A stretch of 64,000 nucleotides of DNA. Origin: an uncultured Eubacteriales bacterium. Its GTDB lineage: Bacteria; Bacillota; Clostridia; Oscillospirales; UBA644. Below the pieces are notes generated by a model. It searched no databases and was not told the DNA's origin. It worked only from the letters and a program-made list of their open reading frames with translations. The stretch spans positions 64,321 through 128,320 of the forward strand of contig CAKSFN010000007.1 in NCBI GenBank assembly GCA_934454405.1, read 5' to 3'. Each line of letters begins with the position of its first letter. The stretch's first letter is position 1. Shown here in pieces: positions 7,707 through 59,796 of this stretch. The position numbers were made by a program, and so were the translations under genes.

Positions 7707-7718
7707 GAGGATTGACAA

Positions 7719-9095: not shown

Positions 9096-9118
9096 TGTAA
9101 GAAAGGGGACTATAAATT

Positions 9119-16700: not shown

Positions 16701-16701
16701 A

Positions 16702-17028
16702 ATGCCTGATATTCTTAATAAAATAGTTGAGTGCGACAATCTTGCAAAAGAGATTGAGGTTGCGGCAAAGCAACAGCAGCAGCACGACCTTGATGAAATG
16801 CAAAGCGGGATACGCGAGATGAGAAAAACGGAGCTTGCGAAAGCATACGGGGAGATTGCGACATCTACCGATATCACAAAAAAGGCTTTCAAGGTCGCAT
16901 CCTCCGACATTGACGGAAGGTTCGAAAAAAAAGCCGAAACTCTTGATAAAACGTATCGTGAGAACAAGGACAGATGGCTGAACGAGATGTTTGACCGGGT
17001 TGTCGGGCTTGCGGAAGACGGAAATTGA
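16702..17028 (+). CDS. V/A-type ATPase peripheral-stalk subunit (G/H-like)
   Basis: 108-aa charged coiled-coil protein that opens the ATPase operon. The call rests on position and size. Confidence 0.6.
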   Translation: MPDILNKIVECDNLAKEIEVAAKQQQQHDLDEMQSGIREMRKTELAKAYGEIATSTDITKKAFKVASSDIDGRFEKKAETLDKTYRENKDRWLNEMFDRVVGLAEDGN

Positions 17029-17029
17029 T

Positions 17030-18097: not shown

Positions 18098-18114
18098 AAG
18101 GACGGTGTGAATTT

Positions 18115-20070
18115 TTGGCTGTATCAAAAATGCAGTTGGTGAATATTGTCGGACCTTTGAGCGCGTATTCGGAAACGGCGCAGGCGGTTATCAAGACCGA
18201 GAGTTTTCACCCGGAAAATATACGAAACGTTCTTCGCGGCTTTTCGCATCTTTTACCGTATGAAGATGAAAACCCGTACAGACCGCTGCTTAAAAAGGCA
18301 AAAGAGCTTGCCGCTCTTGCCGGCAGGGGAGACGAAAAATCAAACATTGACACGGGAACCGACGTTGCGGAAATGTCTGAACGGATTGACAGGCTTCATC
18401 AGTCATCCGCGGAATTGGATGAAAAGATACAGAATATCAAAAATACGATTTTCGAAGAGGAACAGGTCGCTTCGCAGCTTGACGTCCTGTCGGAAACGGA
18501 TTGTGATATTTCTGACCTGTTCAAGCTTGAGTTTATCAAATTCAGATTCGGAAAACTTGCGAAAACCGTTTACAGCAAACTATCGTTTGTTGAGGATGAA
18601 AAGCTTTTTATTTTCATTCCGACTTCGATAAATACGGACTGTGTGTGGGGTATGTACTTCGCCGCAGCCGAGAATATCGAATATGTTGACAGTATTTTCG
18701 CTTCGCTGCAATTCGAACGCAAGTTTTTGAGTTCAAAAATACACGGAAATCCGAGCGAGGCGCGCAGACTTTTGACGGAAGAGATCGAAGAATCGCAAAA
18801 TGCTCTTCAAGATGCGGAAAAACGAAAAAAAGAGCTTCTTTCGGAGGCAAAAAGTTATTCCGGCGCGGTTTTGAGAACCGTTGACCTGTTAAACGAAACG
18901 GAAGAATTGAAAAAATTCTGCGGAAAGACCGGAAAAAACTTCTATATGGCGGGCTGGGTTCCGAGCGAGAGCGTCAAAGATTTTGAAAAGGCTCTTGAAG
19001 GTATAGGAGGTTTGAAGATAACAAAAGAAAAAGCTTCCAACCAGGGCTCTTCCGCGCCGACCAAGCTGAAAAATCCGCTGATTTTCAGACCTTTTGAAAT
19101 GTTTGTCAGAATGTACGGGGTGCCCTGTTACGGTGAGTTCGACCCGACGGCAATAGTTGCCCTGACATATTCGTTGTTTTTCGGAATTATGTTCGGGGAT
19201 CTCGGGCAGGGGATATGCGTCAGCCTCATCGGTCTTTTGGCGTGGAAACTGAAAAAGCTTGAACTCGGAAAAATAATGATTCCGATAGGCGCTTTTTCCG
19301 CGTGTTTCGGCGTGGTTTACGATTCCGTTTTCGGTTATGAGGGCGTATTGAGCCGTCTTATATTCGGAGAAGAAAGAGAGCTCGTTTTCACGCCGTCAAA
19401 CCACATGATGCCGGCACTCGGAATTACCATCGCAATCGGCGTTGTTTTTATTGCGGTTGCGATGATTATGAATATAATCAACTCTTTCAGACGCAAAGAT
19501 ATCGAAAATGCTTTGTTCGGACCGAACGGTATTGCGGGACTTGTCTTCTATTGCGCATTGATAGGAGGACTTGTCGGACCTGTTCTCGGAATGTTCTCCG
19601 ATATTTCATTCAACCTGCTTTCAACACCTTACGTTGTCGGGTTGCTTGTCGTCCCCGCTGTGATAATCTTCTTCCGCAAGCCTCTTGCAGATCTTTTTTC
19701 GGGAAGAAAAGAATGGTTTCCGAAGAAGTTCGGCGAATATCTGATGAGCAATATATTCGAGCTGTTCGAAACATTCCTCAGTTATTGCACAAACTCTCTT
19801 TCTTTTGTCCGTGTCGGCGCTTTCGCGCTGTCGCACGCAAGTATGATGGGTGTTGTGTTCTCTCTTGCAGGCACGGTTCCCTCGGCAGCGTTCGGAAGCG
19901 GCAATCTTGTTGTAATAATCATCGGCAACCTGTTTGTTATGGCTCTTGAAGGACTTATCGTCGGGATTCAGGTGCTTCGTCTTGAATTTTATGAGCTGTT
20001 CAGTCGGTTTTACGGCGGTAACGGCGTTTCGTATTCGCCTCTTAAACTTCGCAGTAATATGAATAGATAA
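18115..20070 (+). CDS. ntpI: V/A-type ATPase subunit I (a-type)
   Basis: 651 aa with a soluble coiled-coil N-terminal half and a multi-TM C-terminal half. The C-terminal half carries the conserved Arg helix (SLSFVRVGAFALSH). The start is TTG. Confidence 0.85.
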   Translation: MAVSKMQLVNIVGPLSAYSETAQAVIKTESFHPENIRNVLRGFSHLLPYEDENPYRPLLKKAKELAALAGRGDEKSNIDTGTDVAEMSERIDRLHQSSAELDEKIQNIKNTIFEEEQVASQLDVLSETDCDISDLFKLEFIKFRFGKLAKTVYSKLSFVEDEKLFIFIPTSINTDCVWGMYFAAAENIEYVDSIFASLQFERKFLSSKIHGNPSEARRLLTEEIEESQNALQDAEKRKKELLSEAKSYSGAVLRTVDLLNETEELKKFCGKTGKNFYMAGWVPSESVKDFEKALEGIGGLKITKEKASNQGSSAPTKLKNPLIFRPFEMFVRMYGVPCYGEFDPTAIVALTYSLFFGIMFGDLGQGICVSLIGLLAWKLKKLELGKIMIPIGAFSACFGVVYDSVFGYEGVLSRLIFGEERELVFTPSNHMMPALGITIAIGVVFIAVAMIMNIINSFRRKDIENALFGPNGIAGLVFYCALIGGLVGPVLGMFSDISFNLLSTPYVVGLLVVPAVIIFFRKPLADLFSGRKEWFPKKFGEYLMSNIFELFETFLSYCTNSLSFVRVGAFALSHASMMGVVFSLAGTVPSAAFGSGNLVVIIIGNLFVMALEGLIVGIQVLRLEFYELFSRFYGGNGVSYSPLKLRSNMNR

Positions 20071-20086
20071 AGGATGGTATATTAAA

Positions 20087-20524
20087 ATGGAAAAAATCAT
20101 AGTTCTCGCGCTTCTTCTGATGACAATGGTTCCGCTTGTAATCGCTGCCAAGCGTTCCAAAAACGGCAAATCCGGCAAAGCGGCTCTTATAACCAATATC
20201 TGTATGTTCTTCGCTCTCGGCATCGGCATAGTTATTGCGCTGCCTCTGACAGCCTCCGCCGCAGGCGAAACCACCGAAGCCGTTGCCGCAGCAGCAGGAA
20301 ATCTTTCCGTCGGCACGGGTATGGCTTACATCGCCGCGGCTCTTTCGACGGGGCTTGCGTGTCTCGGAGCAGGCGTTGCCGTTGCTTCAGCCGCGAGTGC
20401 CGCAATAGGAGCGTCTTCCGAAAATCCGTCTATGTTCGCAAAGTCGATTATCTTTGTTGCACTTGCCGAAGGTATCGCAATTTACGGTATGCTTATCTCG
20501 TTCCAGATAGTGGGAAAGCTGTAA
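20087..20524 (+). CDS. ntpK: V/A-type ATPase proteolipid subunit K
   Basis: 145 aa. The C-terminal hairpin has a Gly/Ala-rich helix (GLACLGAGVAVA) and the carboxylate helix (ALAEGIAIYG). Confidence 0.85.
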   Translation: MEKIIVLALLLMTMVPLVIAAKRSKNGKSGKAALITNICMFFALGIGIVIALPLTASAAGETTEAVAAAAGNLSVGTGMAYIAAALSTGLACLGAGVAVASAASAAIGASSENPSMFAKSIIFVALAEGIAIYGMLISFQIVGKL

Positions 20525-20527
20525 GCC

Positions 20528-20836
20528 ATGAAACTGTTTGTTATCAGCGACAATACCGACACCAAGATGGGGCTTCGTCTTTGCGGAATAGAAGGCGTTG
20601 TTGTTAACGACGAACCGTCGTTAAGGGCTGAGGTTGAAAAGTGTCTGAATGATTCCGAAATCGGAATTTTGCTTGTGACCGAAAAACTTTTCAGACTTGC
20701 GCCGGATTATATAAACGGACTGAAAACATACCGTTCGCTTCCGCTTATTGTCGAGATTCCCGACAGACACGGCGCGGGCAGAACGAAAGACTCCGTAAAT
20801 TCGTATATAAGCGAAGCCATTGGCGTCAAACTGTAA
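20528..20836 (+). CDS. ntpF: V/A-type ATPase subunit F
   Basis: 102 aa with the typical position, size and N-terminus (MKLFVISD...GLRLCGIEG). Confidence 0.8.
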   Translation: MKLFVISDNTDTKMGLRLCGIEGVVVNDEPSLRAEVEKCLNDSEIGILLVTEKLFRLAPDYINGLKTYRSLPLIVEIPDRHGAGRTKDSVNSYISEAIGVKL

Positions 20837-20851
20837 GTCAAAGGATACTGT

Positions 20852-21424
20852 ATGGATAACAGAGAAAAACTCGAATTGCTGAGAGAAACTGTGCTCGCCG
20901 CGGCGCAGCGTTCCGCAGAGGAGACCGAAGCGGAAACAAAAAGGATTATTGAGGAGACCGTTTCCTCTGAAAAAAAGCGTCTTTCCGACGAAATTGCGGA
21001 AATTAAATCCATGAGTTATGATGAACTCAGAAACCGAGACGAAAAAGAACTTGTCACCAAAGACGCAAAATTAAGAAAAAATATTCTCGTTAAGAGAGAG
21101 GCATATATGCGGGAACTCTTCTCCGAATTGGAGAACAGACTTGCGGCATTCCGCAAGTCCGACGGTTACGGAGAGTATCTGAAAAAAGCATACGAGGCAG
21201 CCGTAAAAGAGTTCGGAATACCCGATGTCGCTTATTGCGCAAAAGGTGAAAAAGAACTCTGCAAAAACATTCTTCCCGAACTTTCGTTTGAGGAAGATTC
21301 ATCTGTAAGGCTCGGCGGCGTTATATTTGGAAAGGGAAATCTTTTGCTTGACCTTTCTTTTGACAACCGTGTTGAAAAGGAAAGAACGGATTTCATTAAC
21401 GGCGGCAAATTGCGCCTTGAATGA
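20852..21424 (+). CDS. ntpE: V/A-type ATPase subunit E
   Basis: 190 aa with a long N-terminal charged helix and a globular C-terminus. The stop overlaps the subunit A start. Confidence 0.72.
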   Translation: MDNREKLELLRETVLAAAQRSAEETEAETKRIIEETVSSEKKRLSDEIAEIKSMSYDELRNRDEKELVTKDAKLRKNILVKREAYMRELFSELENRLAAFRKSDGYGEYLKKAYEAAVKEFGIPDVAYCAKGEKELCKNILPELSFEEDSSVRLGGVIFGKGNLLLDLSFDNRVEKERTDFINGGKLRLE

Positions 21425-23217
21425 CGGAAAGTGACAATATGAACGAAAACATAACTATCTATTCGATCAACGGTCCTGTTGTCAAGGTCAAAAATGCGGA
21501 CGACCTGAAAATGCAGGAGACCGTATATGTCGGAAATAAAAAACTGATAGGTGAGGTTATTTCCAATGTGGACGGGGAAGTTACCGTCCAGGTATATGAA
21601 TCCACGACGGGTTTGAAAACCGGTGAACCTATCGAACGAACCGGAAAGCCGATGAGCGTTACGCTCGCCCCGGGTATCATCGGCAATATTTTTGACGGTA
21701 TCGAACGTCCTCTTAAAGCACTTGAAGCAGTCTCGTCGCCGTATATCGAGACCGGCTGCGACGTTGAAAAAGCAGATACAAAGCGAAAATATGAGGTTTC
21801 CGTAACCGTTTCCGAAGGTGAAAAAATCAGACGCGGACAGATTTATGCGACCTGCCGTGAAACATCAAGAATTGAATATCGAGCGCCGAGTACTTGTTCG
21901 GGAACCGTTATTTTTACGGCGAAAAACGGCGAATATACAATAACAGAAACTCTTATTAAGGTTCAGACGGAGCAGGGGACTGTCGAAGAACTCAGTCTGA
22001 CGCAGGAATGGCCGATCCGCGTTCCCCGTCCCGTAGCCGAAAGATTACCTCTTTCGAAACCTCTGATAACGGGACAAAGAAACGTTGACACGATGTTCCC
22101 GATTGCGAAAGGCGGTTCTGCGGCTATACCCGGAGGTTTCGGAACGGGCAAAACCATGCATCAGCACCAGCTTGCAAAATGGTCCGACGCTGACATAATC
22201 ATTTATATCGGCTGCGGCGAACGCGGAAACGAAATGACGCAGGTACTTGAAGAGTTTTCCGGGCTTATCGACCCGAAAACGGGAACTCCTCTCACGGACA
22301 GAACCGTTCTTATCGCAAACACGTCAAATATGCCCGTCGCCGCGCGCGAGGCGTCAATCTATACGGGTATAACCATCGCCGAGTATTATCGCGATATGGG
22401 TTACGATGTTGCAATTATGGCGGATTCGACCTCCCGATGGGCGGAAGCTCTCCGCGAGATCAGCGGCAGACTTGAAGAAATGCCCGCGGAAGAGGGATAT
22501 CCCGCGTATCTTCCGTCGCGTCTTGCCGAGTTTTACGAGCGCGGCGGTTATGTTCGAACCCTCGGCGGTGAGGAAGCGTCGATCACTCTTATCGGTGCAG
22601 TGAGCCCGCAGGGAAGTGATTTTTCGGAGCCCGTAACACAGAATACAAAGCGTTTTGTGTCCTGTTTTTGGGCGCTTGATAAGAGCCTTGCTTATTCAAG
22701 GCATTATCCCGCAATCAACTGGATGACAAGTTATTCGGAGTATATGGACTCTCTTGCGCCGTGGTACAATGAGAACGTAAATGCTAATTTTACAAAAAAC
22801 CGCGGGCGTATTCTGCGTTTGCTGAATGAAGAAGATCAGCTGATGGAGATCGTTAAGCTGATAGGAGCGGACGTTTTACCTGACGCGCAAAGACTTGTCA
22901 TCGAGACTGCTAGGGTTATCCGTGTCGGATTTCTTCAGCAAAACGCGATGCACCCCGTAGACACATATATGTCTATTGACAGACAGTTTAAGATGATGGA
23001 TATTATCCTTTATCTTTATGATGAGGCGCAAAAAATCGTTTCGCGAGCCGTTCCGATATCACAACTTGTAAAAACCGGAATTTTCGATTCCGTTATCCGT
23101 CTGAAATTCGAAATCAAAGAAAACGACGATTCGATTTTTGAAGTGAAAAGAAATCAGATAGATTCGGCGTTTACAACAGTTTCGGAAGAGAATTTCGGTT
23201 CAAATGAGGTGAAATAA
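21421..23217 (+). CDS. ntpA: V/A-type ATPase catalytic subunit A
   Basis: 598 aa with Walker A (GGFGTGKT) and the non-homologous insert typical of A subunits. Confidence 0.95.
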   Translation: MTESDNMNENITIYSINGPVVKVKNADDLKMQETVYVGNKKLIGEVISNVDGEVTVQVYESTTGLKTGEPIERTGKPMSVTLAPGIIGNIFDGIERPLKALEAVSSPYIETGCDVEKADTKRKYEVSVTVSEGEKIRRGQIYATCRETSRIEYRAPSTCSGTVIFTAKNGEYTITETLIKVQTEQGTVEELSLTQEWPIRVPRPVAERLPLSKPLITGQRNVDTMFPIAKGGSAAIPGGFGTGKTMHQHQLAKWSDADIIIYIGCGERGNEMTQVLEEFSGLIDPKTGTPLTDRTVLIANTSNMPVAAREASIYTGITIAEYYRDMGYDVAIMADSTSRWAEALREISGRLEEMPAEEGYPAYLPSRLAEFYERGGYVRTLGGEEASITLIGAVSPQGSDFSEPVTQNTKRFVSCFWALDKSLAYSRHYPAINWMTSYSEYMDSLAPWYNENVNANFTKNRGRILRLLNEEDQLMEIVKLIGADVLPDAQRLVIETARVIRVGFLQQNAMHPVDTYMSIDRQFKMMDIILYLYDEAQKIVSRAVPISQLVKTGIFDSVIRLKFEIKENDDSIFEVKRNQIDSAFTTVSEENFGSNEVK

Positions 23218-24585
23218 TTGCAATTTGATTATAAAGGGCTTTCCGGTATTAACGGACCTCTCGTAATTATTGACGGCGTGCGCGGTGTCGGATATGAAGA
23301 AGTCTGTGAAATCAAACTTAATGACGGCACAAAAAAACTCGGCAGAGTTATAGAAATAACGGGAGAGAAGGCAATTATTCAGGTTTTTGAGGGGACGATC
23401 GGTCTTTCGATGAACAACACCCGTACAAGATTCGCGGGAAAACCGATGGAACTCGGCGTTTCAAAAGAACTCATCGGACGTGTTTTTAACGGCTCCGGCG
23501 AACCCATCGACGGTCTCGGTCCTGTTTTCGCAGAGAAGTTCATTGATGTTAACGGCTTACCCATAAATCCTGTTTGCAGACGCTATCCGAGAAACTACAT
23601 CCATACCGGAATATCGAGTATTGACGCGCTGATGACACTTATCAGGGGACAGAAACTTCCCGTTTTTTCCGGTTCCGGTATGTCTCACAATAAACTTGCC
23701 GCGCAGATTGTGCGTCAGGCAAGGCTCGGCTCGGAAGGTGAATTCGGCATAGTTTTTGGTTCAATGGGCATAAAGCACGATGTTTCTCAGTATTTTTTGC
23801 AACAGTTTCGGGAAGCGGGAGTTTTGTCAAAGGTCGTTATGTTCCAAAATCTTTCAAATGACCCGATAGCCGAAAGAATAATGATCCCTCGGCTGGCTCT
23901 TACCGCCGCGGAATATCTTGCATTTGAATGCGGAATGCACATACTTGTCATTCTCACGGATATGACTTCGTACGCTGAGGCCTTGCGTGAACTCTCGTCT
24001 TCAAAGAACGAAATTCCCGGAAGAAAAGGCTATCCCGGTTATCTGTACTCCGACCTTGCGTCCATCTATGAAAGAGCCGGTATGGTGGAAGGAAAAAGCG
24101 GCTCGATAACCCAAATTCCCATACTGACAATGCCGAATGACGATATTACGCACCCGATCCCCGACTTGACGGGTTATATTACCGAGGGACAGATAGTGCT
24201 TGACAGAAGCCTTGAACAAAAAGGCGTTTACCCGTCGGTTTCCGTTTTGTCATCTCTTTCGCGTCTGATGAAAGACGGAATAGGCGAGGGGTACACAAGG
24301 GAAGACCACTCTGTCGTTTCAAATCAGTTGTTTGCGTCGTATTCCAAGGTTCAGCAGGCGAGAAGTCTTGCCTCCGTTGTCGGAGAAGAGGAACTTTCGG
24401 ATGTGGACAAACTGTATATGAGATTCGGCGAAGAGTTTGAAAAGCGTTTTTTGACGCAAGATTTTTCAGAGTCGAGAACAATAAACGAAACGCTTGACCT
24501 CGGCTGGGAGTTGCTTCGGATTCTTCCTGCGGGCGAACTTGACAGGGTAGATCCGAAATATATAGAAAAGTATTATAACAGATAA
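23218..24585 (+). CDS. ntpB: V/A-type ATPase subunit B
   Basis: 455 aa of the alpha/beta ATPase fold without a canonical P-loop. The start is TTG, directly after the ntpA stop. Confidence 0.95.
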
Positions 24586-24596
24586 GGAATGAACCT

Positions 24597-25223
24597 ATGG
24601 CGGCAACGGTATTTGCTACGAAAGGAAACCTTATAAGTACACAACGCTCGCTTGCGCTTGCAAAGACGGGCTATGAACTTATGGATAAAAAACGTAATAT
24701 CCTTATTCGGGAAATGATGTTGCTTGTCGACAAGGCAAATTCAATTCAATCCGAGATAGACAGTATTTTTTCCGAAGCGTACGCATCCTTGCTGGAAGCA
24801 AATCTTTCGTCAGGGGTAATCCAAAGCATTGCGGAAGCCGTTCCCGTTGAAAAAGGTGTCAGAATAAGAGCAAAAAGCGTTATGGGCGTTGAAGTCCCTC
24901 TTGTTACGCTCGAAGAAAAAAGGGGAGAGACCGTGCCGTACGGTCTTATGGAAACGGACGCCGCTCTTGATAACGCTTATTTGAAGTTCAAGCGTGTTAA
25001 AGAGCTTTGCGTAACATTGTCGGAAATCGAAAACTCCGTTTACAGGCTTGCCGTTGCAATAAAGAAAACTCAACGCAGAGCAAATTCGTTGAAAAATATC
25101 GTGATCCCGAAGCAGGAAGAAACCGTCAAGTTTATTATGAACACGCTTGAAGAAAAAGAGCGTGAAGAGTTTTCGAGAATGAAAATTATCAAAAACAGAA
25201 AAGATCACGAGGAGAAATATTGA
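24597..25223 (+). CDS. ntpD: V/A-type ATPase central-stalk subunit D
   Basis: 208-aa coiled-coil protein and the last gene of the operon. Confidence 0.85.
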   Translation: MAATVFATKGNLISTQRSLALAKTGYELMDKKRNILIREMMLLVDKANSIQSEIDSIFSEAYASLLEANLSSGVIQSIAEAVPVEKGVRIRAKSVMGVEVPLVTLEEKRGETVPYGLMETDAALDNAYLKFKRVKELCVTLSEIENSVYRLAVAIKKTQRRANSLKNIVIPKQEETVKFIMNTLEEKEREEFSRMKIIKNRKDHEEKY

Positions 25224-25813: not shown

Positions 25814-26794
25814 ATGGTTTACGAATCCGTTCCGGGCTTCTGCCGTGAGTTTTTGTTTTATAAACGCAATGTTCAGAATCTGTCGCAAAAAACGGTTGAC
25901 CAGTATTATCTTGATATGAAACTGTTCTTTCAATGGCTTGCTGATGAGAACGACATAAAATCGCCGTCTGTTGAAATTCCGTCCGACGGTCGGTTTGTCC
26001 CCATAGAGATTGTTAAAAAATTAACATTCGGAGATTTGCTCAGCTACCTTAACTACACCACAAACGAACTTGAAAATCACGCGCGCGCCCGAGCGAGAAA
26101 GATATCTTCAATGCGCGGTTTTTTTAAGTATTTGCAGAAAAACAACATCATTGACGAAAACCCGGCGCTCAATCTTGAGGTTCCGAAAATGCCGAAAGCT
26201 CTCCCCGTTCATTTGAATCTTTTTGAGGCGAAAAAACTTTTGGAGTCAATCGATGGTAAGAATTTTTCTCGGAATTATTGTATAATTACTCTGTTTTTGA
26301 ATTGCGGTATGCGTCTTTCGGAACTTGCGGGAATAGATATCGGAGACATTGATTTTGACCGTGAATCGGTTGTTGTCAGAGGTAAAGGCAATAAAGAACG
26401 CAGGCTTCATCTGAACACAATGTGCATGGAGGCGGTTCAGAAATATCTTAAAGACCGTTATTCGGAAACGCATGTTAAGGGCGGCGCGGAAAAAGCCCTG
26501 TTTTTGAGCAGAAACGGTAATCGCCTGTCAAACAGAATGATACAGACCATGATAAAGACTTTTATTGAAAAAAGCGGGCTTGACCCTGAAAAAATTTCTA
26601 CGCATAAACTGCGTCACACCGCGGCAACGCTGATGTATCAAAACGGCGTTGACGTGCGTGTTCTGCAAGTCGTTCTCGGGCACGCTAATCTCGGAACGAC
26701 GCAGATTTATACCCATGTCGGTGACGATCAGGTTGATAAGGCAATCGAAAACAATCCTCTCGACGATCTTGAAATCCACAAAAAAAACGGTTAA
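25814..26794 (+). CDS. Xer-like tyrosine site-specific recombinase
   Basis: 326 aa with an N-terminal SAM-like domain. Catalytic residues are in RLSEL, HKLRHTAAT and LGHANLGTTQIYTH. The RBS is GGAGG. Confidence 0.9.
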   Translation: MVYESVPGFCREFLFYKRNVQNLSQKTVDQYYLDMKLFFQWLADENDIKSPSVEIPSDGRFVPIEIVKKLTFGDLLSYLNYTTNELENHARARARKISSMRGFFKYLQKNNIIDENPALNLEVPKMPKALPVHLNLFEAKKLLESIDGKNFSRNYCIITLFLNCGMRLSELAGIDIGDIDFDRESVVVRGKGNKERRLHLNTMCMEAVQKYLKDRYSETHVKGGAEKALFLSRNGNRLSNRMIQTMIKTFIEKSGLDPEKISTHKLRHTAATLMYQNGVDVRVLQVVLGHANLGTTQIYTHVGDDQVDKAIENNPLDDLEIHKKNG

Positions 26795-43394: not shown

Positions 43395-43470
43395 TGGTCG
43401 GAGTGACGGGATTCGAACCCACGACCTCTTGGTCCCGAACCAAGCACGCTACCATCTGCGCTACACCCCG
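43395..43470 (-). tRNA. tRNA-Pro (anticodon CGG), CCA encoded
   Basis: The reverse complement folds as a cloverleaf. The acceptor stem is CGGGGTG/CACTCCG. The anticodon stem CTTGG/CCAAG closes the loop TTCGGGA. The T-loop is TTCGAAT and the 3' CCA is encoded. Confidence 0.93.
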
Positions 43471-49950: not shown

Positions 49951-50084
49951 ATTATGTCACTCTCTTTCCGGTATCATTATCAACAGTTTTGTTCCTCTGT
50001 TCGATTACATTCTATCAGTTTTGCACAAATTGCGCAATACATTTAATTGGCATTTTTGTGTCGCAAGAAAATCCTATTTGCCGG

Positions 50085-51175: not shown

Positions 51176-52840
51176 TTAATTAAAATTATCGGCAGCTTTT
51201 AGCATATCTTTCGCGGTCTCCTTCGCCGAAGAAGCAATATCGCCTCCGAGCAGCCTCGCCAGCTCATCCACGCGCCCCGCGCCGTCAAGCGCGTCAACCG
51301 TTGTGTAAGTTCTGCTGCCATCGTCCTTTTTCTCGATTTTCAGATGTTCGTCCGCGTACGCCGCAATCTGAGCAAGGTGCGTAACGGTTATAACCTGCGT
51401 TATTTTCGACATCTGCTTCATTTTTTGCGCGATACGCACGGAAGCTCTGCCGCTGACGCCCGTATCTATCTCGTCAAATATAAGCGTTTCGTTTTTCTCG
51501 GGCGAAGACAGAATTTTTCTCAACGCAAGCATTATGCGGCTCAATTCGCCGCCCGAAGCAACCGACGAAAGAGGCTTGACGGTCTCCCCTACGTTCGTGC
51601 TTATAAGAAACTCAACGTCATCGGCGCCGTCAAAAGAATACTTCTTTTTATCAATTCGCACTTCGACCCGAACTTTCGGCATTTCAAGCTCGGAAAGCTC
51701 CCTCATGACCTCTTTTCGGATCTTTTCAGCGGCATCTTTTCTTGTCTGCGTCAATTTTTGAGCCTTTGACACAAGCTCGTCATGTGCTTTTATCAGCTCC
51801 GCGTCAAGCTTGAGAACGGCGGCGTCGGAATATTCTATCTGCGCAAGCTGTTCTTTTGCAGCGGCAAGATAAGAGTTGATTTCCGCTATCGTTTTTCCGT
51901 ATTTTCTTTTAAGAGAATTTATAACGCCGAGCCTGTCTTCAATTTCGTCAAGTTCACGAGGATTGAAGTCAAAACCGTCGGCAAGCTTTCGAACATCGTC
52001 TGCCAGCGCGTCGAGATCTGTTAAAATGTTTTCGGAACGCGACGAAAATTCTTCAAGCTCCGGGGAAAACTCCGAAACGACTTCAAGACCGCAGACCGCG
52101 CGCGAAAACATATCGGAAATGTTATACTCTCCGTCGGAAAGAATGTTTCTGACCAAGGACAGGTTTTCGATTATTTTTTCGGCGCCCGAAAGTATTTTTT
52201 TTCTGTTTGCAAGATCCGTGTCTTCACCCTCGACGGGAGATGCCGCTTCGATTTCGTTTATCTGGTATGTAAGAGTGTCTACCTTTCTCGCTTTTTCGTC
52301 ATCGTCAAGCGTCAGCCTGTCAATTTCTTTCTTTATCGCCCGAAACTCTCTGTACGCAGTTCTGTAATCCGTGATTTCCCCGATATTTCCCGCATACGCG
52401 TCAAGAAAAGAAAGGTGCGTCGCCGTGTCAAGCAACGTTCCGTTATCCTGCTGTCCGTGAATGGTGATGAGTTTTTTGCCGAATTCACGCAGAACCGAGG
52501 CGGGAACCTGCCTTGAATTTACCCTTGCAACGCTTTTGCCTTCGGACGAAAGCTCGCGCGAAAGGAAAAGGCTTCCGTCGCTTTCTTCGGGAATCCCGTA
52601 TTCCGAAAACAGCTTTTCAAGCCCTTTAACTCCGAAAAATTCCGCGCTTACAAAAGCTTTTGCGCACCCGGTTCTTATCAAGTCCTTCGACGCCCTGTTG
52701 CCGAGCAAAATATTTATACTGTCGATTAAGATGGATTTTCCCGCGCCCGTTTCGCCCGTCAGCGCGACAAAACCCTTGCTGAACTCTATGTCGGCATTTT
52801 CAATGACGGCAATATTTTCAATATGTAACCGTGAAATCAT
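51176..52840 (-). CDS. recN: DNA repair protein RecN
   Basis: 554 aa with Walker A (GETGAGKS), a long coiled-coil centre and an SMC-like C-terminus. Confidence 0.93.
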   Translation of the reverse strand: MISRLHIENIAVIENADIEFSKGFVALTGETGAGKSILIDSINILLGNRASKDLIRTGCAKAFVSAEFFGVKGLEKLFSEYGIPEESDGSLFLSRELSSEGKSVARVNSRQVPASVLREFGKKLITIHGQQDNGTLLDTATHLSFLDAYAGNIGEITDYRTAYREFRAIKKEIDRLTLDDDEKARKVDTLTYQINEIEAASPVEGEDTDLANRKKILSGAEKIIENLSLVRNILSDGEYNISDMFSRAVCGLEVVSEFSPELEEFSSRSENILTDLDALADDVRKLADGFDFNPRELDEIEDRLGVINSLKRKYGKTIAEINSYLAAAKEQLAQIEYSDAAVLKLDAELIKAHDELVSKAQKLTQTRKDAAEKIRKEVMRELSELEMPKVRVEVRIDKKKYSFDGADDVEFLISTNVGETVKPLSSVASGGELSRIMLALRKILSSPEKNETLIFDEIDTGVSGRASVRIAQKMKQMSKITQVITVTHLAQIAAYADEHLKIEKKDDGSRTYTTVDALDGAGRVDELARLLGGDIASSAKETAKDMLKAADNFN

Positions 52841-52843
52841 GAA

Positions 52844-53314
52844 TTATAAGCCCGCGGTTATCGCGTTTATTTCGGAAACGATGTCAAGCGCCTTGTCGTT
52901 ATCCGTCGCGACAAGAAAAATCGTATCGTCGCCGGCAAGCGAACCGACGATGTTTGTTCTGTCCAGCGCATCGATTGAAGCGCATACCGCCTGCGCCATA
53001 CCGGTGTAGCACTTAACAACAACAATATTCTGCGCAACGCGAACGTTCATAATGCCCTCACGCATAACAGCCTGAGATTTTGCGCTGAGAACGTTGCCGC
53101 CCGAAACGGCTTTGTCTCTCTGTTCATATCTGTACACGTTGTCCTTCGTCAATATCTTGACCAAATGCATCTCTTTGATGTCTCTGGAAACGGTCGCCTG
53201 CGTCGCCTTAAATCCGGCGGCGTTCAAAAACAGAGTAAGCTCGTCCTGCGTTTCAATGTTGTTGTCGTTGATGATTTCAAGTATTTTAGCATGTCTTCTG
53301 CTTTTCAGTTTCAT
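52844..53314 (-). CDS. argR: arginine repressor
   Basis: 156 aa with an N-terminal winged helix and a C-terminal oligomerisation domain (GTLAGDDTIF-type motif SLAGDDTIFL). Confidence 0.9.
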   Translation of the reverse strand: MKLKSRRHAKILEIINDNNIETQDELTLFLNAAGFKATQATVSRDIKEMHLVKILTKDNVYRYEQRDKAVSGGNVLSAKSQAVMREGIMNVRVAQNIVVVKCYTGMAQAVCASIDALDRTNIVGSLAGDDTIFLVATDNDKALDIVSEINAITAGL

Positions 53315-53318
53315 TTGC

Positions 53319-54158
53319 TTACCTCAACTTCATATTTAAAATCTCGTAGAATGACAAATCTTTCAATCTGATTATTTTTGTTGTTTTCTCCGACCGCTCG
53401 ACCTCAACGGTGTCGTTGTCCTCAAGTCGGAAGTTTTCATACCCGTCCGCCGTCAAATACGGTTCGCCGTTAAAAACGGAAACCTCCGCATACAGCTTTG
53501 TCGCCGCGTCAAAAAGAATGGGTCTGCTGTGCAGAGAATGCGCGCATATCGGGGTAAGAACGATAGCCTGCATTTTCGGATCGACGGCGGGACCTCCCGC
53601 GGAAATCGAGTATCCGGTTGAACCCGTCGGCGTTGAAAAAACAATGCCGTCTGCGGAATATTCGCTTATAAAACCGGCATCGGAATCGACTTTGATTCCG
53701 ACGGTTCTGCTGACCGCGCCGTGGCTTATGACAACGTCATTCAGTGCGGAACAGGAAAAACAAATCTCACCGTTTCTGACAACTCTGCAATCAAGCATCA
53801 TTCTTTCGTCCACGGTATACCTGCCCTCAACAAGATCGTTAAGCAGAGTGACCTCAACGGGTTCGACCTCCGCAAGGAAGCCGACTTTGCCCATATTAAT
53901 GCCGAGTATCGGCTTTCCGAAGACCGAGGCCTTCCGCGCCGCGCGCAAAATCGTGCCGTCGCCTCCGACGCTCAAAACAATATCGCAGAACTCAATTCCT
54001 TCGCCCGTTTCACGAAATTCAACCCCGGAAAAGGTATCGGAAACGGACGGAACGTCCGAACTTATACTAACGCCGAGATCGAGAAGCTCGCGAACGATGG
54101 CTTCCGTAACGGAGAGGTCGTTGTCCTTTTGCGTATTCGTAACGATATGAACTTTCAA
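53319..54158 (-). CDS. nadK: NAD kinase
   Basis: 279 aa with the GGDGT motif (SVGGDGTIL). Confidence 0.92.
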   Translation of the reverse strand: MKVHIVTNTQKDNDLSVTEAIVRELLDLGVSISSDVPSVSDTFSGVEFRETGEGIEFCDIVLSVGGDGTILRAARKASVFGKPILGINMGKVGFLAEVEPVEVTLLNDLVEGRYTVDERMMLDCRVVRNGEICFSCSALNDVVISHGAVSRTVGIKVDSDAGFISEYSADGIVFSTPTGSTGYSISAGGPAVDPKMQAIVLTPICAHSLHSRPILFDAATKLYAEVSVFNGEPYLTADGYENFRLEDNDTVEVERSEKTTKIIRLKDLSFYEILNMKLR

Positions 54159-54162
54159 GAGA

Positions 54163-54948
54163 TCACCTCCCCTTCAGCGTCTCGTGCGCCCGCCTTACCG
54201 TCGCTTTTATGTCAACGGCTTTTTCGCATTCAGACCTTTTTCCGAAGCTTACGAGAAATTCAATATTTCCCTCGCCGCCTTTGATCGGCGAAAAATCCAG
54301 CCCGTAAACCGTCAGCCCGAACGACTGCGCAAAGCCGATTACGTCCGCGACTGTTTCAATATGATCTTTTTCGCCTGAAACAACCCCGTTTTTAATCTTT
54401 TTTTTACCTATTTCAAACTGCGGCTTTATCAGGCAGACGATTTGCCCATCGTCATCAATGAAATCCGCAAGATGCGAAATAATTTTTTTCACGGAAACAA
54501 AGGAAACGTCGGAAACAACGATGTCTGTTTTGCCGATCTCTGCCGGCTTTATATCAAGAATGTTGCAGCCCTCGAGATTTACCACCCTTTTATCCCGCAA
54601 AAGTTTTTTATCGAGCTGCCCGTGTCCGACATCGACGGAAAAGACCTTTTTTGCGCCGTATTGCAGCGCGCAATCCGTAAAGCCGCCGGTGGAAGCGCCC
54701 ACATCAAGTACGATTTTATCAAAAAAGTTCAGATTGAAGGATTTGATTGCTTTTTTAAGTTTAAGCCCGCCCTTACCGACAAAACCGATGCTGTCGCTGA
54801 CGCCGACGCGGTCGCTTTCTTTCACGTCGTATGCGGGCTTTTTCACAACCTCGCCGTTTACCGTCACATCACCGTTTTTAATATAAAAGCGCGCTTTTTC
54901 GCGGGAACAGAACTTCATTTCCGCGGAAACATACAGGTCAAGTCTCAT
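54163..54948 (-). CDS. tlyA: TlyA-family rRNA 2'-O-methyltransferase
   Basis: 261 aa with an S4-like N-terminus and the FtsJ-type SAM motif VLDVGASTGGFTD. Confidence 0.9.
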   Translation of the reverse strand: MRLDLYVSAEMKFCSREKARFYIKNGDVTVNGEVVKKPAYDVKESDRVGVSDSIGFVGKGGLKLKKAIKSFNLNFFDKIVLDVGASTGGFTDCALQYGAKKVFSVDVGHGQLDKKLLRDKRVVNLEGCNILDIKPAEIGKTDIVVSDVSFVSVKKIISHLADFIDDDGQIVCLIKPQFEIGKKKIKNGVVSGEKDHIETVADVIGFAQSFGLTVYGLDFSPIKGGEGNIEFLVSFGKRSECEKAVDIKATVRRAHETLKGR

Positions 54949-55607
54949 TTTGTCTTCTTCTTTTTGGTTTTACCTTCCCCGAATACGCTGAGAAGCTTTG
55001 CAAAAAAGAAAATTATACTGTTCGCCTTTTTTATCGCGAAGTTTTTACCGAAAGCCTTTCCCGAAACGGTGATTGCAGATATCAAAGCCGTTACGACAAC
55101 CGCCGTTATAAGCTTGTTCAGCCCGAAAATTTCCGCAAAACCGACGGAAATGATGCTTCCGACAGAACCGCTCAAAACGCTTGATATATCACCCATTACG
55201 TCGTTGCAGAAATTTGCTACCGTGTCGGCGCTCTGCGCCCATTTCAGCGCTTTTTTCGCGCCTCTTACCTGCCGGGTGCACATTGAATTCAGACTTTTCG
55301 GATCTGCCGACATAACCGCCGTGCCTATTATATCGAAAAGAATGCCGATAAAAATGAAAACGAACAATATGGCGAACGCTATCCAAACATTCAGTTCTTC
55401 GGAAACGGATTCCGAAAAAAAAGAAAGTCCGATTGAAATAGAGAAAGTAATAAGAAATATGCGCGCCGTCCATTTCCAATTGAACATACTGTCCTTTTTC
55501 TGTTTTTTTTGTCCCGACGGCTGGGTTTCCCTGCTTTTTTTAGCTTCGATATCCGTGCTGTCTTCGCTGCAACTTCGGTCAATCTCTGCGGCGGATTCTT
55601 CTTTCAT
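54945..55607 (-). CDS. oapA: 4-TM membrane protein, OapA-like (OLE-associated protein candidate)
   Basis: 220 aa with a charged N-terminus, four hydrophobic helices and a Lys-rich tail. The stop overlaps the tlyA start. It lies directly downstream of the ~620-nt structured ORF-free region. Confidence 0.6.
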   Translation of the reverse strand: MKEESAAEIDRSCSEDSTDIEAKKSRETQPSGQKKQKKDSMFNWKWTARIFLITFSISIGLSFFSESVSEELNVWIAFAILFVFIFIGILFDIIGTAVMSADPKSLNSMCTRQVRGAKKALKWAQSADTVANFCNDVMGDISSVLSGSVGSIISVGFAEIFGLNKLITAVVVTALISAITVSGKAFGKNFAIKKANSIIFFFAKLLSVFGEGKTKKKKTK

Positions 55608-55634
55608 TTTAATTCTCCCGTAAAAAATATACGA

Positions 55635-56261
55635 TGATAACGCTCAAAGTTAATCTTATGTCTTAGGTCAAGTAGGTTTCCCCGCGGTCTACCCGCTGTC
55701 GCCAAACGGGCGGTTTCCCTTTGAAGCCCACGAAAACCGCATCACTGCGATTTTAACTTGATCGCCACTCAGTACATACTGCAATCCTTTGAGCGTATAC
55801 GGTCTAGGAGATTTCCTCAACGGTTTAAGTCAACGCTTAGTCTCTTTTGCAGGAACGGTTTCAATCCGCAATAAGACGAAATTGCTGCCGCAAATCGCCT
55901 CTGATCGAACATTCGCCGCCCCCACTCAAGACAGGCTACGGCTGCACACAGCGTAATCCCCATTTCAAAAAATGTTTTTGCAAAGTTCCATCGGAACAGG
56001 AGTTACACCGCCTTGCAGGTTTTATCCCGAGTCGTACCACGCAATAAGGCACAAGTTCGGGTCTCCACGGCAAACGGAACAGGATCGTATGCCATTACGG
56101 TTGCCCGTAAGCCATAGGACGCTCTCGCGTCCCCCATCCAGCACCCACCCCAGACTGGGCGTAAGAAGCAAGCACCAGAAGTTTCACAGATATGCCCTTC
56201 GGTGGATTTTTAGCCCCACCCTGGTCGTTGCAAAAACCGACTAGAATACCGCATCATCGCA
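55635..56261 (-). ncRNA. ole: OLE-class (ornate, large, extremophilic) RNA candidate
   Basis: About 620 nt with no credible ORF. It has its own promoter at 56296-56268. GNRA-capped helices lie at 56132-56117 (GGACGC-GAGA-GCGTCC) and 56110-56095 (TTACGG-GCAA-CCGTAA). A 10-bp long-range pairing links 55787-55796 with 55640-55649. The gene order ole-oapA-tlyA-nadK-argR-recN fits. Ends are approximate. Confidence 0.65.
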
Positions 56262-56267
56262 GAATGT

Positions 56268-56296
56268 ATTATAACACATTTTAAGACCGTTTTCAA
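56268..56296 (-). promoter_or_regulatory. extended -10 promoter driving the OLE-like RNA
   Basis: On the minus strand, TTGAAA (56296-56291), a 17-nt spacer ending in TGT, then TATAAT (56273-56268). Confidence 0.7.
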
Positions 56297-56346: not shown

Positions 56347-56375
56347 TTGACAAATCGTGTCAATAGATGTATAAT
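56347..56375 (+). promoter_or_regulatory. perfect consensus promoter of the lipoprotein gene
   Basis: TTGACA at 56347-56352, a 17-nt spacer, then TATAAT at 56370-56375. This excludes the 56367 start given in the ORF track. Confidence 0.7.
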
Positions 56376-56423: not shown

Positions 56424-57098
56424 ATGAAAATGCAAAAAGCCGTTTCGTTATTGATTGTTATTTTTGTCGTTGCGTCGCTGTTTTGTTCGTGCGAAGCGTA
56501 CAGCTTCGGGAACATCACAAAGCTCGAATTCTCGGACGATCTTTCGGAGATAGAATTAAATGAGGGCGAAGTAAGCGACACGCTGCATCTTATCGTTTCT
56601 TCAAATGGCGATTTCAACCCTGAAATTATTCTCACGCACTCCGATAAATTCGAGGTTGCGGCAGTCTCCGAAAGTAAATATGTTGTTTCAAATGTTATGG
56701 CTTTTAAGATCAGCGCATTCAAAAAGGGCACGACATATATTTGGTTTGAAACTGTTGATAACAGAATAAAAACAAAAGGAATAAAGGTTACGGTTAAGGC
56801 AAAGGCAGCGAGAGAAGAACATCCTGAAGACAAGCCTATTGAAGACGAACCGGAGGAAATGGCAGAGAAACAACCCGTCAAAAGCGTAGATGAGACGGAA
56901 AACACCGTTCAGACTCCGACGGCGAAAAGTGTTGAGAGCGATGAAAAGAATCCGCAGAAGCCCTCAACGGTATATGTGACGCCGAAAGGAAAGAAATATC
57001 ATTTTTCAAAGAGCTGCGCAGGGAAAAACGCAAAACAGACGGATTTTGATACAGCCGTGAAAAAATACAGTCCCTGTAAAAAATGCGCGGGCGGCTGA
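56424..57098 (+). CDS. lipoprotein with Ig-like N-domain, acidic linker and C-terminal Cys motif
   Basis: 224 aa from ATG 56424, with an AAAGAGG RBS. It has a lipobox-like SLFCSC. The C-terminus is KYHFSKSCAG...SPCKKCAG. Confidence 0.75.
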   Translation: MKMQKAVSLLIVIFVVASLFCSCEAYSFGNITKLEFSDDLSEIELNEGEVSDTLHLIVSSNGDFNPEIILTHSDKFEVAAVSESKYVVSNVMAFKISAFKKGTTYIWFETVDNRIKTKGIKVTVKAKAAREEHPEDKPIEDEPEEMAEKQPVKSVDETENTVQTPTAKSVESDEKNPQKPSTVYVTPKGKKYHFSKSCAGKNAKQTDFDTAVKKYSPCKKCAGG

Positions 57099-57276: not shown

Positions 57277-59796
57277 ATGTCTATTCTTACCCTGCCGGAT
57301 ACGACGGAAGTCATCGCGGAGTATCCGTATTTTCCCACAAGACAGCAGCTTTTCATTTGGCGCAACTGGGGAATGGTTAAAACCGAAATCATTGCCGACG
57401 TTCTCGGAACGGATGTTGAAACGGTCAACGGTCTTGCCTCCGATATGGGGCTTGACGTTCCGATGAAATATAACGCAGAGTATGCGAAGCGCGGCTTTAT
57501 AACCATCATCAGAAACAACTGGCAGGTCGTTCCGTATGACCAGCTTATCAAATGCGCGGGAATGACGCGCGACGAGCTTGCTTTCACGCTTAAAGAGGAC
57601 GATTTTCTCGGCGTTAAGCTGCAGGAAAAGCCGAATGTTCCCGAAATCAAATATACCCCGCTTACCAACGCGCAAAAAGAGCAGACAAAAAAACTCAAAG
57701 CGTGGACGGAAAAGCATTTTGCCGCATACAGAGACAAAATAACCGTAAATGATTTTGACTTTATTAAAGATTACGGCAAACCGGAAAGAAAGATGAAGAA
57801 CAACACAAACAGAGCGGTTGTTCTCGACTCTTCATGGGGCGTTAAAAACGAAAGCGGAAACCCCGCCGCCGACATTTTTGCTCAGAATTTCATTGAGAAT
57901 ACAAAAAAAGAATGGGACGTTGAACTTACCGGCGACAAAAAGTTCATTACGCTCAGAATCGTTCCCGACGAAACGAAAAAACAGGAAAGCCATGCGGTGT
58001 CTTTCTCGAAAGACGGCATAATCATTACCGCCGTTGACGAAGAAGGCGTAAACAAGGGACTTCAATACATCTCGTTTATCGCCGACAGAAACGAAGGACT
58101 TACTTTCGACGAAGGAAACATCGTCAGAGACACGCGCTTTGACGTCAGATATACCTACTCCTACAACGCTCTTTACGGCGACGCTCTTCTTGAAGGCGGC
58201 GTTTCGTCGTATCCCGACGAGCTTCTTAAAGAGTATTCGAGAATAGGCATAAACGGAATATGGATTCACGCGGTTCTTTACAAGCTTGTTGAATTTCCGT
58301 GGGAGCCTTCCCTTTCCGATAAATGGCAGCAGCGCATAAAAGGACTTCAAAGTCTTGTCGCAAGAGCCGCAAAATTCGGAATCAAGGTTTATCTATATAT
58401 GAACGAACCCCGCGCAATGCCGATGAGTTTCTTTGACAAATATCCCGAGCTTCTCGGATATTCCAACGGACCCGAGGGCACGCTCTGCACATCCACGCCC
58501 GAGGTTCAGAAATATCTTTCGGATTCAATCACGCAGCTTTGCGAAGCGGCGCCGCAGCTCGGTGGATTTTTCACCATCACGGCATCGGAAAACCTGACAA
58601 ACTGCTACGCACACGTTGTTGAAACTCCCTGCCCGAGATGCAGCAAAAGAAAAGCTTACGAGGTTCTTGCGGAGGTCAACCTCATTATCGCAAGAGCGGC
58701 AAGAAAAGTCAACAAGGACATTAAAGTTCTTGCGTGGAACTGGGGCTGGACGGGCAGGTTCGAATCGTGGGACGATATGGCGAAGGCTATCGGCGACGAA
58801 GGCGTTCGCGTTATGTGCACAAGTGAAGAAGGCGTTAAAAAGACGATCGGCGGCGTTGAAACGTCCGTTATCGACTATTCTATTTCCCTTGTCGGTCCCG
58901 GCGACAATGCAAAAAATGTCTGGAAGACCTGCAAAAAATACGGTGTAAAAACGCTTGCGAAGGTTCAGTTCAATAACACGTGGGAATGTTCGACCGTTCC
59001 GTATCTGCCTGTTGTTGACCTTGTCGAGCAGCATATTCAGGGCATTGTTGACAACAATGTTGACGGACTGATGATTGGCTGGACTCTCGGCGGTTATCCG
59101 TCAATGAACCTTGAGGTTGCAAGTCAGTATTATTGGACAAACGGCGATCCCGAAGATGCGATCGTTTCGATTTTCGGAGACAAGGCGCCCGTTATAAACA
59201 AGGCGACCGCGACCTTCTCCAAGGCTTTTCAAAACTTCCCGTTCCATATCGGAACCCTCTACAAAGGACCTCAGCACATGGGGCCGTCCAACCCGCTGTT
59301 TGAACATCAGACAAAGCTTTATGCAACAATGACGGGGCTTCCCTACGACGATATTGAACAATGGCGTTCCATTTATCCGCTTGACATTTTTGAAAATCAG
59401 CTTCGTCTTGTGGCGGAAGGCTTCAAGGAAGGCATTGACGAGTTAAAATCGTCCGTGACGGAGAAAGACCTTGCGGAGAATAAGCGTCTGGCTGAATTTG
59501 CGGACGTGGCGACGGGAACTTATTGCCTGTTCAAGAGTTCGTATCAGCAAACAGCGTATAACGTTACGAGAAATAAGTTTGACGCGGAGACCGATCCCGA
59601 CAGGAAGGAAGAATACAGAAAACGCATCGTGCAGCTTCTCAACGCGGAAATGGATACCGCGATGGAGATGTACGGCGTTATGATTCACAACTCCACCATC
59701 GGTTACGAAGCGGCGAACCACTATTTCTTCAACAAATACAGCATGATGGAAAAAATCCTCTGCTGCGAATACTTACTCGAAAGATTCGGCAAGTAA
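57277..59796 (+). CDS. large cytoplasmic protein, clan GH-A-like glycoside hydrolase candidate
   Basis: 839 aa with an AAGGAGG RBS. It has a duplicated ~45-aa N-terminal module and a central TIM-barrel-like region carrying an NEP motif (YLYMNEPRAM). The function is not recognised. Confidence 0.8.
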   Translation: MSILTLPDTTEVIAEYPYFPTRQQLFIWRNWGMVKTEIIADVLGTDVETVNGLASDMGLDVPMKYNAEYAKRGFITIIRNNWQVVPYDQLIKCAGMTRDELAFTLKEDDFLGVKLQEKPNVPEIKYTPLTNAQKEQTKKLKAWTEKHFAAYRDKITVNDFDFIKDYGKPERKMKNNTNRAVVLDSSWGVKNESGNPAADIFAQNFIENTKKEWDVELTGDKKFITLRIVPDETKKQESHAVSFSKDGIIITAVDEEGVNKGLQYISFIADRNEGLTFDEGNIVRDTRFDVRYTYSYNALYGDALLEGGVSSYPDELLKEYSRIGINGIWIHAVLYKLVEFPWEPSLSDKWQQRIKGLQSLVARAAKFGIKVYLYMNEPRAMPMSFFDKYPELLGYSNGPEGTLCTSTPEVQKYLSDSITQLCEAAPQLGGFFTITASENLTNCYAHVVETPCPRCSKRKAYEVLAEVNLIIARAARKVNKDIKVLAWNWGWTGRFESWDDMAKAIGDEGVRVMCTSEEGVKKTIGGVETSVIDYSISLVGPGDNAKNVWKTCKKYGVKTLAKVQFNNTWECSTVPYLPVVDLVEQHIQGIVDNNVDGLMIGWTLGGYPSMNLEVASQYYWTNGDPEDAIVSIFGDKAPVINKATATFSKAFQNFPFHIGTLYKGPQHMGPSNPLFEHQTKLYATMTGLPYDDIEQWRSIYPLDIFENQLRLVAEGFKEGIDELKSSVTEKDLAENKRLAEFADVATGTYCLFKSSYQQTAYNVTRNKFDAETDPDRKEEYRKRIVQLLNAEMDTAMEMYGVMIHNSTIGYEAANHYFFNKYSMMEKILCCEYLLERFGK

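Follow-up and report, generated by a model that had tools for sequence, protein, structure and literature searches.

The minus strand of the window, which is the whole 64,000-nucleotide (nt) stretch of contig CAKSFN010000007.1 analyzed here, carries a long structured RNA that matches the OLE family, a promoter-like sequence immediately ahead of it, and oapA, a gene for a four-helix membrane protein, directly behind it. The genes tlyA, nadK, argR and recN follow in the same orientation, and a lipoprotein-like gene diverges from the other side of the promoter. From these features and from comparisons with other OLE loci, the locus is predicted, with a probability of about 95%, to encode a full-length OLE (ornate, large, extremophilic) RNA that would be co-transcribed with oapA from its own sigma-70 promoter, and probably with tlyA-nadK-argR-recN as well.

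A scan of the whole 64-kb window against Rfam 15 gave two matches above the gathering score, RF01071 (OLE) and one tRNA. The RF01071 match covers 56273 to 55618 on the minus strand and scores 372.1 bits against a gathering score of 50 (E = 9.7e-106), and its alignment spans model positions 1 to 616 without truncation. The corresponding scores of relatives are 285 to 443 bits, with four full-length relatives at 371 to 443 bits. The structured core, from P1 to P1', runs from 56258 to 55633 (minus strand; 626 nt) and is of the full-length type. An earlier note on this DNA, made from the letters alone, had called the region an OLE-class RNA and proposed the minus-strand RF01071 comparison as its check; the full-length match above the gathering score bears out the call. 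The region 55608 to 56260, which that note described as lacking a credible open reading frame (ORF) and as not AT-rich, unlike the other spacers, does contain only small frames (55, 66 and 90 amino acids (aa) on the plus strand, and 64 aa on the minus strand, spanning the promoter), and its description as not AT-rich is equally sound: the G+C fraction across the RNA is 0.48 to 0.53 (Rfam gives 0.50), compared with 0.38 in the intergenic stretch next to it, promoter included, and 0.31 for the spacer at 50000.

The fold is conserved together with the sequence match. In the window itself, 136 of the 149 pairs of the Rfam consensus structure are canonical. The consensus structure was also copied to the window sequence and from there projected onto 50 OLE sequences from other genomes, which had been aligned to the window with MAFFT independently of the Rfam model. 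Across these 51 sequences, 85.8% of the cells pair, compared with 41 to 47% when the partners are slid by 1 to 3 columns, so that the homologous loci have the covariation-supported structure that the earlier note's call implied; both-sided changes are found in 116 of the 149 pairs. None of 500 shuffles reached the observed pairing values, and the minimum-free-energy z-score of the window RNA is -3.45.

Three long-range helices add to this picture. P1 and P3/P3.1 have been described for OLE RNA, with P3/P3.1 as the proposed membrane-spanning part (PMC12265935). The Rfam model lacks all three; the window has them, under names assigned from the text of that paper. The 5′ strand of P1, GAUGAU (56253 to 56258, minus strand), pairs with AUCAUC at 55638 to 55633 and thereby closes the entire RNA; this 6-bp helix is 87% paired, with 5 of its 6 pairs changed on both sides. 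P3 consists of 6 bp (CGGUUU with AAACCG) and P3.1 of 5 bp (CAACG with CGUUG). Jointly, P1, P3 and P3.1 are 78% paired in the 51-sequence alignment, compared with 32 to 51% in the slid controls, and an unconstrained minimum-free-energy fold recovers all three. Further, a perfect 10-bp pairing between 55796-55787 and 55649-55640, which the earlier note had pointed out, encloses the domain at 55640 to 55796 (minus strand) and corresponds to helix 12, a conserved long-range helix of the Rfam model; 93.9% of its cells pair, and 10 of its 11 pairs have changes on both sides.

The primary binding site of OapB has been located in the GNRA tetraloop of P13, whose bulged stem lies next to P12.2 (PMC7936274). 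In the Rfam alignment, the P13 hairpin of the window RNA occupies 55733 to 55754 on the minus strand (AAAAU-C-GCA-GUGA-UGC-G-GUUUU, read from 55754 to 55733), with its GUGA tetraloop at 55745-55742, making it a candidate OapB site; a second tetraloop, GCGA, is kept on the pseudosymmetric arm. Judged by sequence, the OapB-site features (the GUGA loop of P13 and the second GCGA loop) are thus retained in the window RNA.

The protein encoded directly downstream is OapA. The oapA gene (54945 to 55607, minus strand) specifies 220 aa with four transmembrane helices, its ATG lies 11 nt past the end of the RF01071 match, and its stop shares 4 nt with the start of tlyA, in agreement with an earlier description of the RNA region as running straight into a 220-aa gene whose stop overlaps tlyA. 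Its ribosome binding site (RBS), GGGAG at 55619-55615, falls within the 3′ tail of the Rfam match, beyond the end of P1 at 55633. The 220-aa ORF matches PF01595 (CNNM) with 31.1 bits, just above the cut-off of 28.4. A database search returned 87 homologues, nearly all without a name. Across the 26 that were aligned, FDIIG and D136-x-x-x-D140 (DVMGD) are invariant, and no proline is. An AlphaFold2 model (mean predicted local distance difference test score (pLDDT) 74.6) contains helices at residues 44-69, 74-100, 127-161 and 165-193, and the hydropathy profile agrees with these four membrane helices. The window protein shares with a relative of 81% OapA identity a charged, hydrophilic N-terminal extension of about 45 aa, for which disorder is predicted (pLDDT below 50); its C-terminal tail is lysine-rich.

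A profile sequence search with OapA against all PDB chains gave nothing at E ≤ 0.01; with no usable solved OapA structure, the fold was therefore compared through the predicted model. The five best PDB fold matches, 7M1T (two chains), 7M1U, 7CFF and 7CFG, are all CNNM/CorB/CorC transmembrane domains. The published hallmarks of OapA are four transmembrane helices, a DxxxD motif, absence of the CNNM proline and a PF01595 match weaker than that of MpfA, and the OapA of Halalkalibacterium halodurans likewise gave a CNNM/CorB/CorC fold result, with 7M1U as its top match (PMC11332333). With its four transmembrane helices, DxxxD motif, CNNM-like fold and position directly 3′ of ole, the 220-aa protein is OapA, as the earlier note had suggested from its membrane topology and position.

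Homologous loci (handles L followed by a number) were collected by a pattern scan of GTDB genomes, which gave at least 80 loci; all counts over 80 loci apply to the matches listed. An nhmmer search with the window RNA as query found OLE upstream of the OapA homologue and on the same strand in 78 of the 80 genomes, and directly adjacent to it in 71. None of the GTDB matches listed is closer to the window protein than 48% OapA identity, and the closer relatives come from metagenome contigs. As a side observation, L005 and L082 have an OapA homologue for which the same nhmmer search found no OLE upstream; either their OLE RNAs are too diverged or these are orphan oapA genes.

The ole promoter (56268 to 56296, minus strand) reads TTGAAA-17-TGt-TATAAT, an extended -10 promoter that scores 11/12 and has the TG extension. 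The region as a whole has no excess of promoter-like sites (3 found, 2.5 expected), and the ole promoter is credible because the same motif occurs at the same place in most OLE loci. In particular, an alignment of the 45 nt upstream of P1 from 51 OLE loci of distant clades shows an extended -10 sigma-70 promoter (TGnTAtAaT) that ends 6 to 14 nt before P1 in most of them; under strict spacing rules, 29 of the 51 match at least 9 of 12 promoter positions. Loci with the motif include some in which ole follows ispA, the promoter is conserved with L087, and for ole of B. halodurans a separate promoter within a larger operon has been reported (PMC9723947). An own promoter is a family-wide feature of OLE. 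The earlier note, which read the same hexamers and spacing at 56296-56268, was therefore right about a strong promoter belonging to the RNA, but overstated its novelty as a departure from the classical arrangement, as it is found also where ispA precedes.

With the -10 box ending at 56268 and P1 starting at 56258, we infer a transcription start near 56261, 1 to 5 nt before P1, and the primary transcript would therefore begin essentially at the mature 5′ end. As an observation on the family at large, the placement of the promoter 6 to 14 nt before P1 across clades implies that transcription starts at the mature 5′ end, which would then not be a processing site. No terminator-like site was found between the OLE RNA and oapA, and their co-transcription is therefore expected.

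In some members of the family, namely the variant 1 and variant 2 OLE RNAs, certain arms are shortened or missing (PMC11332333). P7, P8 and P9 of the window RNA all align and none is shortened (model positions 198-241, 249-277 and 286-383); since the arms reduced in variants 1 and 2 are all present, the RNA is a full-length OLE. Compared with the RF01071 model, it departs in four places: a 17-nt GNRA hairpin follows the GCCCA-loop arm as an insert, the hairpin at model positions 249-277 is extended by 50 nt, the arm at 198-241 has a loop shorter by 8 nt, and a small hairpin at model positions 425-436 is missing. According to the Rfam alignments of five relatives, all four departures fall in spots that vary among relatives. 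For example, the 50-nt extension (55955 to 56004, minus strand) belongs to the variable J6/7-P8 region, relatives have 51, 49, 43, 24 and 19 nt at the same site, and the window's extension is predicted, from a single-sequence fold, to form a small three-way junction.

The inserted hairpin, GGACGC-GAGA-GCGUCC at 56117 to 56132 (minus strand), lies in the joining region after the GCCCA-loop arm and is optional in the family. The relative with 81% OapA identity carries the same GAGA hairpin, and L089 (53%) has none. L088 (68%) has GAAUGU-GCAA-ACAUUC, in which every stem position is changed while the pairing and the GNRA loop are kept, and L007 and L016 carry 28-nt hairpins at the site. Inserts were counted by the spacing between two invariant loops, by which 72 sequences could be anchored; inserts of 16 to 29 nt occur in 18 of these 72 (the window and 17 other loci), and each is a hairpin of different sequence. 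The GAGA hairpin, which the earlier note had read correctly, is a recurrent optional stem backed by compensatory changes and is not peculiar to the window locus. A second GNRA-capped helix claimed alongside it, UUACGG-GCAA-CCGUAA at 56110-56095, is present as a sequence but was rejected as a native helix: its loop is GCAG in L088, and it is probably not a native pairing because it competes with a conserved arm of the family whose loop, AAUGGCAU, is invariant.

Downstream of oapA, and in agreement with the gene names first given to them, Pfam and NCBIfam matches identify tlyA (rRNA cytidine-2'-O-methyltransferase; 54163 to 54948, minus strand; TIGR00478, 215.9 bits), nadK (NAD kinase; 53319 to 54158, minus strand), argR (arginine repressor; 52844 to 53314, minus strand) and recN (51176 to 52840, minus strand; TIGR00634, 515.7 bits). 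Upstream, a divergent promoter of perfect consensus, TTGACA-17-TATAAT (56347-56375, plus strand), stands back-to-back with the ole promoter and precedes a lipoprotein-like gene of 222 aa (56430-57098, plus strand; start as called in public assemblies), whose product belongs to no Pfam or NCBIfam family, shows a lipoprotein-like signal peptide (…VVASLFCSC), and is acidic in its middle part and Cys-rich at the C-terminus (KKYHFSKSCAGKN…SPCKKCAGG). The classical ole neighborhood is (asp23-nusB)-xseA-xseB-ispA-(DUF212)-ole-oapA-dxs-tlyA-nadK-argR-recN. The window keeps ole-oapA and then tlyA-nadK-argR-recN, all on one strand and in the classical order; it differs in having no dxs between oapA and tlyA and a divergent lipoprotein-like gene upstream of ole. 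Genes for xseA, xseB, ispA, DUF212 and dxs are found nowhere in the 64-kb window.

A literature search for published statistics on ole neighborhoods gave metabolic-engineering papers only, and the frequencies were therefore computed on the 80 loci. Over the 68 loci with at least 3 kb of sequence downstream, the order oapA-dxs-tlyA occurs in 28, oapA is directly followed by tlyA in 4, the two are parted by a gene other than dxs in 2, and 34, mostly reduced "Bacilli" metagenome-assembled genomes (MAGs), have neither dxs nor tlyA. The metagenome relatives L086, L088 and L089 (81%, 68% and 53% OapA identity) have oapA-tlyA-nadK-argR without dxs, and so do L007 and L016, the nearest GTDB loci among the matches listed; in other lineages, L072 and L074 also have oapA next to tlyA without dxs. 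Because dxs is missing in all closer relatives and in L007 and L016, its loss from the cluster is a clade trait. On the upstream side, 41 of 61 loci have no ispA within about 5 kb. L016 has asp23-nusB-tsaD-xseA-xseB-ispA-DUF212 ahead of ole, and L089 has a polyprenyl synthetase gene (ispA) directly upstream of it; since L089 keeps ispA and the window lacks it, the upstream linkage was recently lost in the window species. The breakpoint falls between the ole promoter and the divergent one at 56347-56375, with the lipoprotein-like gene in place of ispA. Overall, the rearranged neighborhood is real but modest, a minor lineage variation in which only the upstream loss of ispA is recent. The missing dxs and the separation from xseAB/ispA had been reported accurately, but their novelty was overstated, given the seven loci above with the same downstream order and the 41 of 61 without an upstream ispA.

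Two side observations concern this neighborhood. A DUF212 (divergent PAP2) gene, which is not in the usual description of the ole neighborhood, often stands between ispA and ole (L007, L016, L013, L028, L030, L034, L038, L069 and L075), and DUF212 may be another membrane- or isoprenoid-linked neighbor of OLE. Moreover, argR is still linked to ole in the trimmed cluster of the window, and unpublished evidence for binding of OLE RNA by ArgR is mentioned in two 2025 papers of the Breaker laboratory (PMC12054373, PMC12265935).

The identical locus is present on at least 22 public metagenome contigs, the longest of which (174.9 kb) is from a Hadza human-gut metagenome, and the closest GTDB loci among the matches listed are labelled as Oscillospiraceae or Clostridia MAGs. 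The host belongs to the Clostridia and is an uncultured inhabitant of the human gut. Elsewhere, the window holds housekeeping genes. Also present are a tRNA gene (43398-43470, minus strand; RF00005, 63.7 bits), a complete V-type ATPase operon at about 16700-25223 on the plus strand (AC39, I, F, A, B and D), followed by a tyrosine recombinase/integrase gene (25814-26794, plus strand), and a 2-oxoacid dehydrogenase set at 6357-11587 on the plus strand (E2 6357-7706, E3 7719-9095, E1 9119-11587). Its E1 component is a single chain of 822 aa that fuses E1_dh, Transket_pyr and Transketolase_C and has the sole, weak dxs-like similarity in the window. Further, an 839-aa protein encoded at 57277-59796 (plus strand) has no significant family match, a sub-threshold Glyco_hydro_20b hit being its sole one, and is common in gut metagenomes (578 sequences in its 90% identity cluster).

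Several observations weigh against a conventional full-length OLE locus with the usual partners. The CorB/CorC fold matches of OapA are weak by E-value (6e-3 to 0.3), though their probability is 1.00, and the likeness to B. halodurans OapA was judged by published hallmarks. For this organism, expression, processing, membrane localization and protein binding are predictions from homology. A further point concerns OapC, which recognizes a k-turn formed by the joining regions flanking the GCCCA-loop arm (PMC9723947). In the window RNA, the bulged strand of this k-turn (AUC-UGU-GAA) is intact, but the opposite, non-bulged strand is interrupted by the 17-nt GAGA hairpin, and a U aligns to the k-turn's key unpaired consensus A in the Rfam alignment. 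Together with the frequent lack of OapB and OapC in gut-symbiont clades with variant OLE RNAs (PMC11332333), these k-turn changes would fit a reduced, partner-poor RNA that works with OapA alone, like the TANB77 and RF39 variants. Such a reduced form is unlikely, as the arms reduced in variants 1 and 2 are all present and one is even extended, P13 retains the GUGA loop of the OapB site, and a three-way, k-junction-like arrangement is possible; moreover, hairpins sit at the same site in at least 17 other full-length OLE RNAs, and the insert is therefore compatible with a conserved RNA. A related and similarly doubtful proposal is that, in this gut Clostridia sub-clade, the inserted GNRA hairpin could turn the k-turn into a three-way k-junction, with its loop docking elsewhere in domain 1, or abolish OapC binding. 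If OapC binding were abolished, the result would be a full-length OLE particle with a different protein set; and if the particle still functions after the uncoupling of the window's cluster from both isoprenoid genes, dxs and ispA, OLE function would be independent of co-expression with isoprenoid synthesis.

Two further explanations are less probable still. The 650-nt region could be a cis-acting leader of oapA-tlyA, riboswitch- or attenuator-like, instead of a stable trans-acting RNA, and the shared transcript with no terminator in between and the position of the oapA RBS within the 3′ tail of the Rfam match are what such a leader would have. However, the family is known for abundant RNAs of about 630 nt that work as part of a ribonucleoprotein (PMC9723947), the RBS at 55619-55615 is outside P1 and unsequestered in the predicted fold, and no alternative pairing resembling an expression platform was seen, which makes a leader very improbable. 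The broken xseAB/ispA linkage and the absent dxs could also mark a remnant, either decaying or acquired horizontally, in which ole and oapA ceased to function after the rearrangement. There is hardly any room for such a remnant: the RNA scores 372 bits, as high as the four full-length relatives (371 to 443 bits), with canonical bases in 136 of the 149 model pairs; an intact oapA shares 81% identity with that of a relative, N-terminal extension included; the promoter is conserved with L087; and at least 22 contigs carry an identical locus. A full-length OLE RNA expressed with oapA thus remains the preferred explanation.

The mode of action of the window's OLE RNA can be outlined by analogy with published work on Halalkalibacterium halodurans and two Clostridium species (PMC9723947, PMC7936274, PMC11332333, PMC12265935, PMC10898510). 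The RNA of about 630 nt would dimerize, and a dimer of the four-helix, CNNM-like OapA (two proteins per RNA) would hold it at the cell membrane, where it would probably recruit OapB, a KOW-domain protein, at the P13 GNRA loop and P12.2 and, probably, OapC (YbxF), of the L7Ae family, at the k-turn. A tblastn search with a B. subtilis YbxF query gave no match in the 64-kb window, a result that says little. The particle would then help the cell tolerate short-chain alcohols, cold, excess Mg2+ and poor carbon sources (PMC10898510, PMC9723947, PMC12265935). In its history, the host lineage first lost dxs from the cluster, and the window species later lost the upstream ispA linkage by rearrangement.

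Recent models of OLE have the RNA spanning the membrane. A 2024 survey counted 2,822 OLE-carrying Bacillota genomes, uncultured gut clades included (PMC11332333), and the window copy adds no new principle. Its value is comparative: it offers a full-length OLE from the human gut whose cluster retains tlyA-nadK-argR-recN but has lost dxs and, more recently, ispA; clear compensatory changes in favor of an optional hairpin in the k-turn region; and an extended -10 promoter just before P1 that is family-wide.

Compared with the full-length OLE RNAs of Halalkalibacterium halodurans, Clostridium acetobutylicum and C. botulinum, the window RNA covers the whole model and keeps the conserved single-stranded blocks CUAAAAAU, GCCCAG, AAUGGCAU, GUAGCCUG, GGAUUGCAGU, AAGUGG, AAAGGGAAACC and ACCUAAG; like them, it has arms P4a to P15, P1, P3 and P3.1, its own promoter, and oapA directly downstream. 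The window protein resembles other OapA proteins in its four transmembrane helices, DxxxD motif, weak PF01595 match, lack of CBS and CorC_HlyC domains and position immediately 3′ of ole, and differs from most of its homologues in length (220 aa compared with about 170 to 200 aa). With the CNNM-family Mg2+ transporters MpfA, CorB and CorC, it shares the fold of the transmembrane domain; in contrast to them, OapA has four instead of three transmembrane helices, no cytosolic CBS/CorC domains, a DxxxD motif and no conserved CNNM proline (PMC11332333), and for these differences in helix number, domains, motif and proline it was not filed as a transporter. Overall, the window RNA and oapA form a standard member of a known family, in which any Rfam-based annotation would find OLE.

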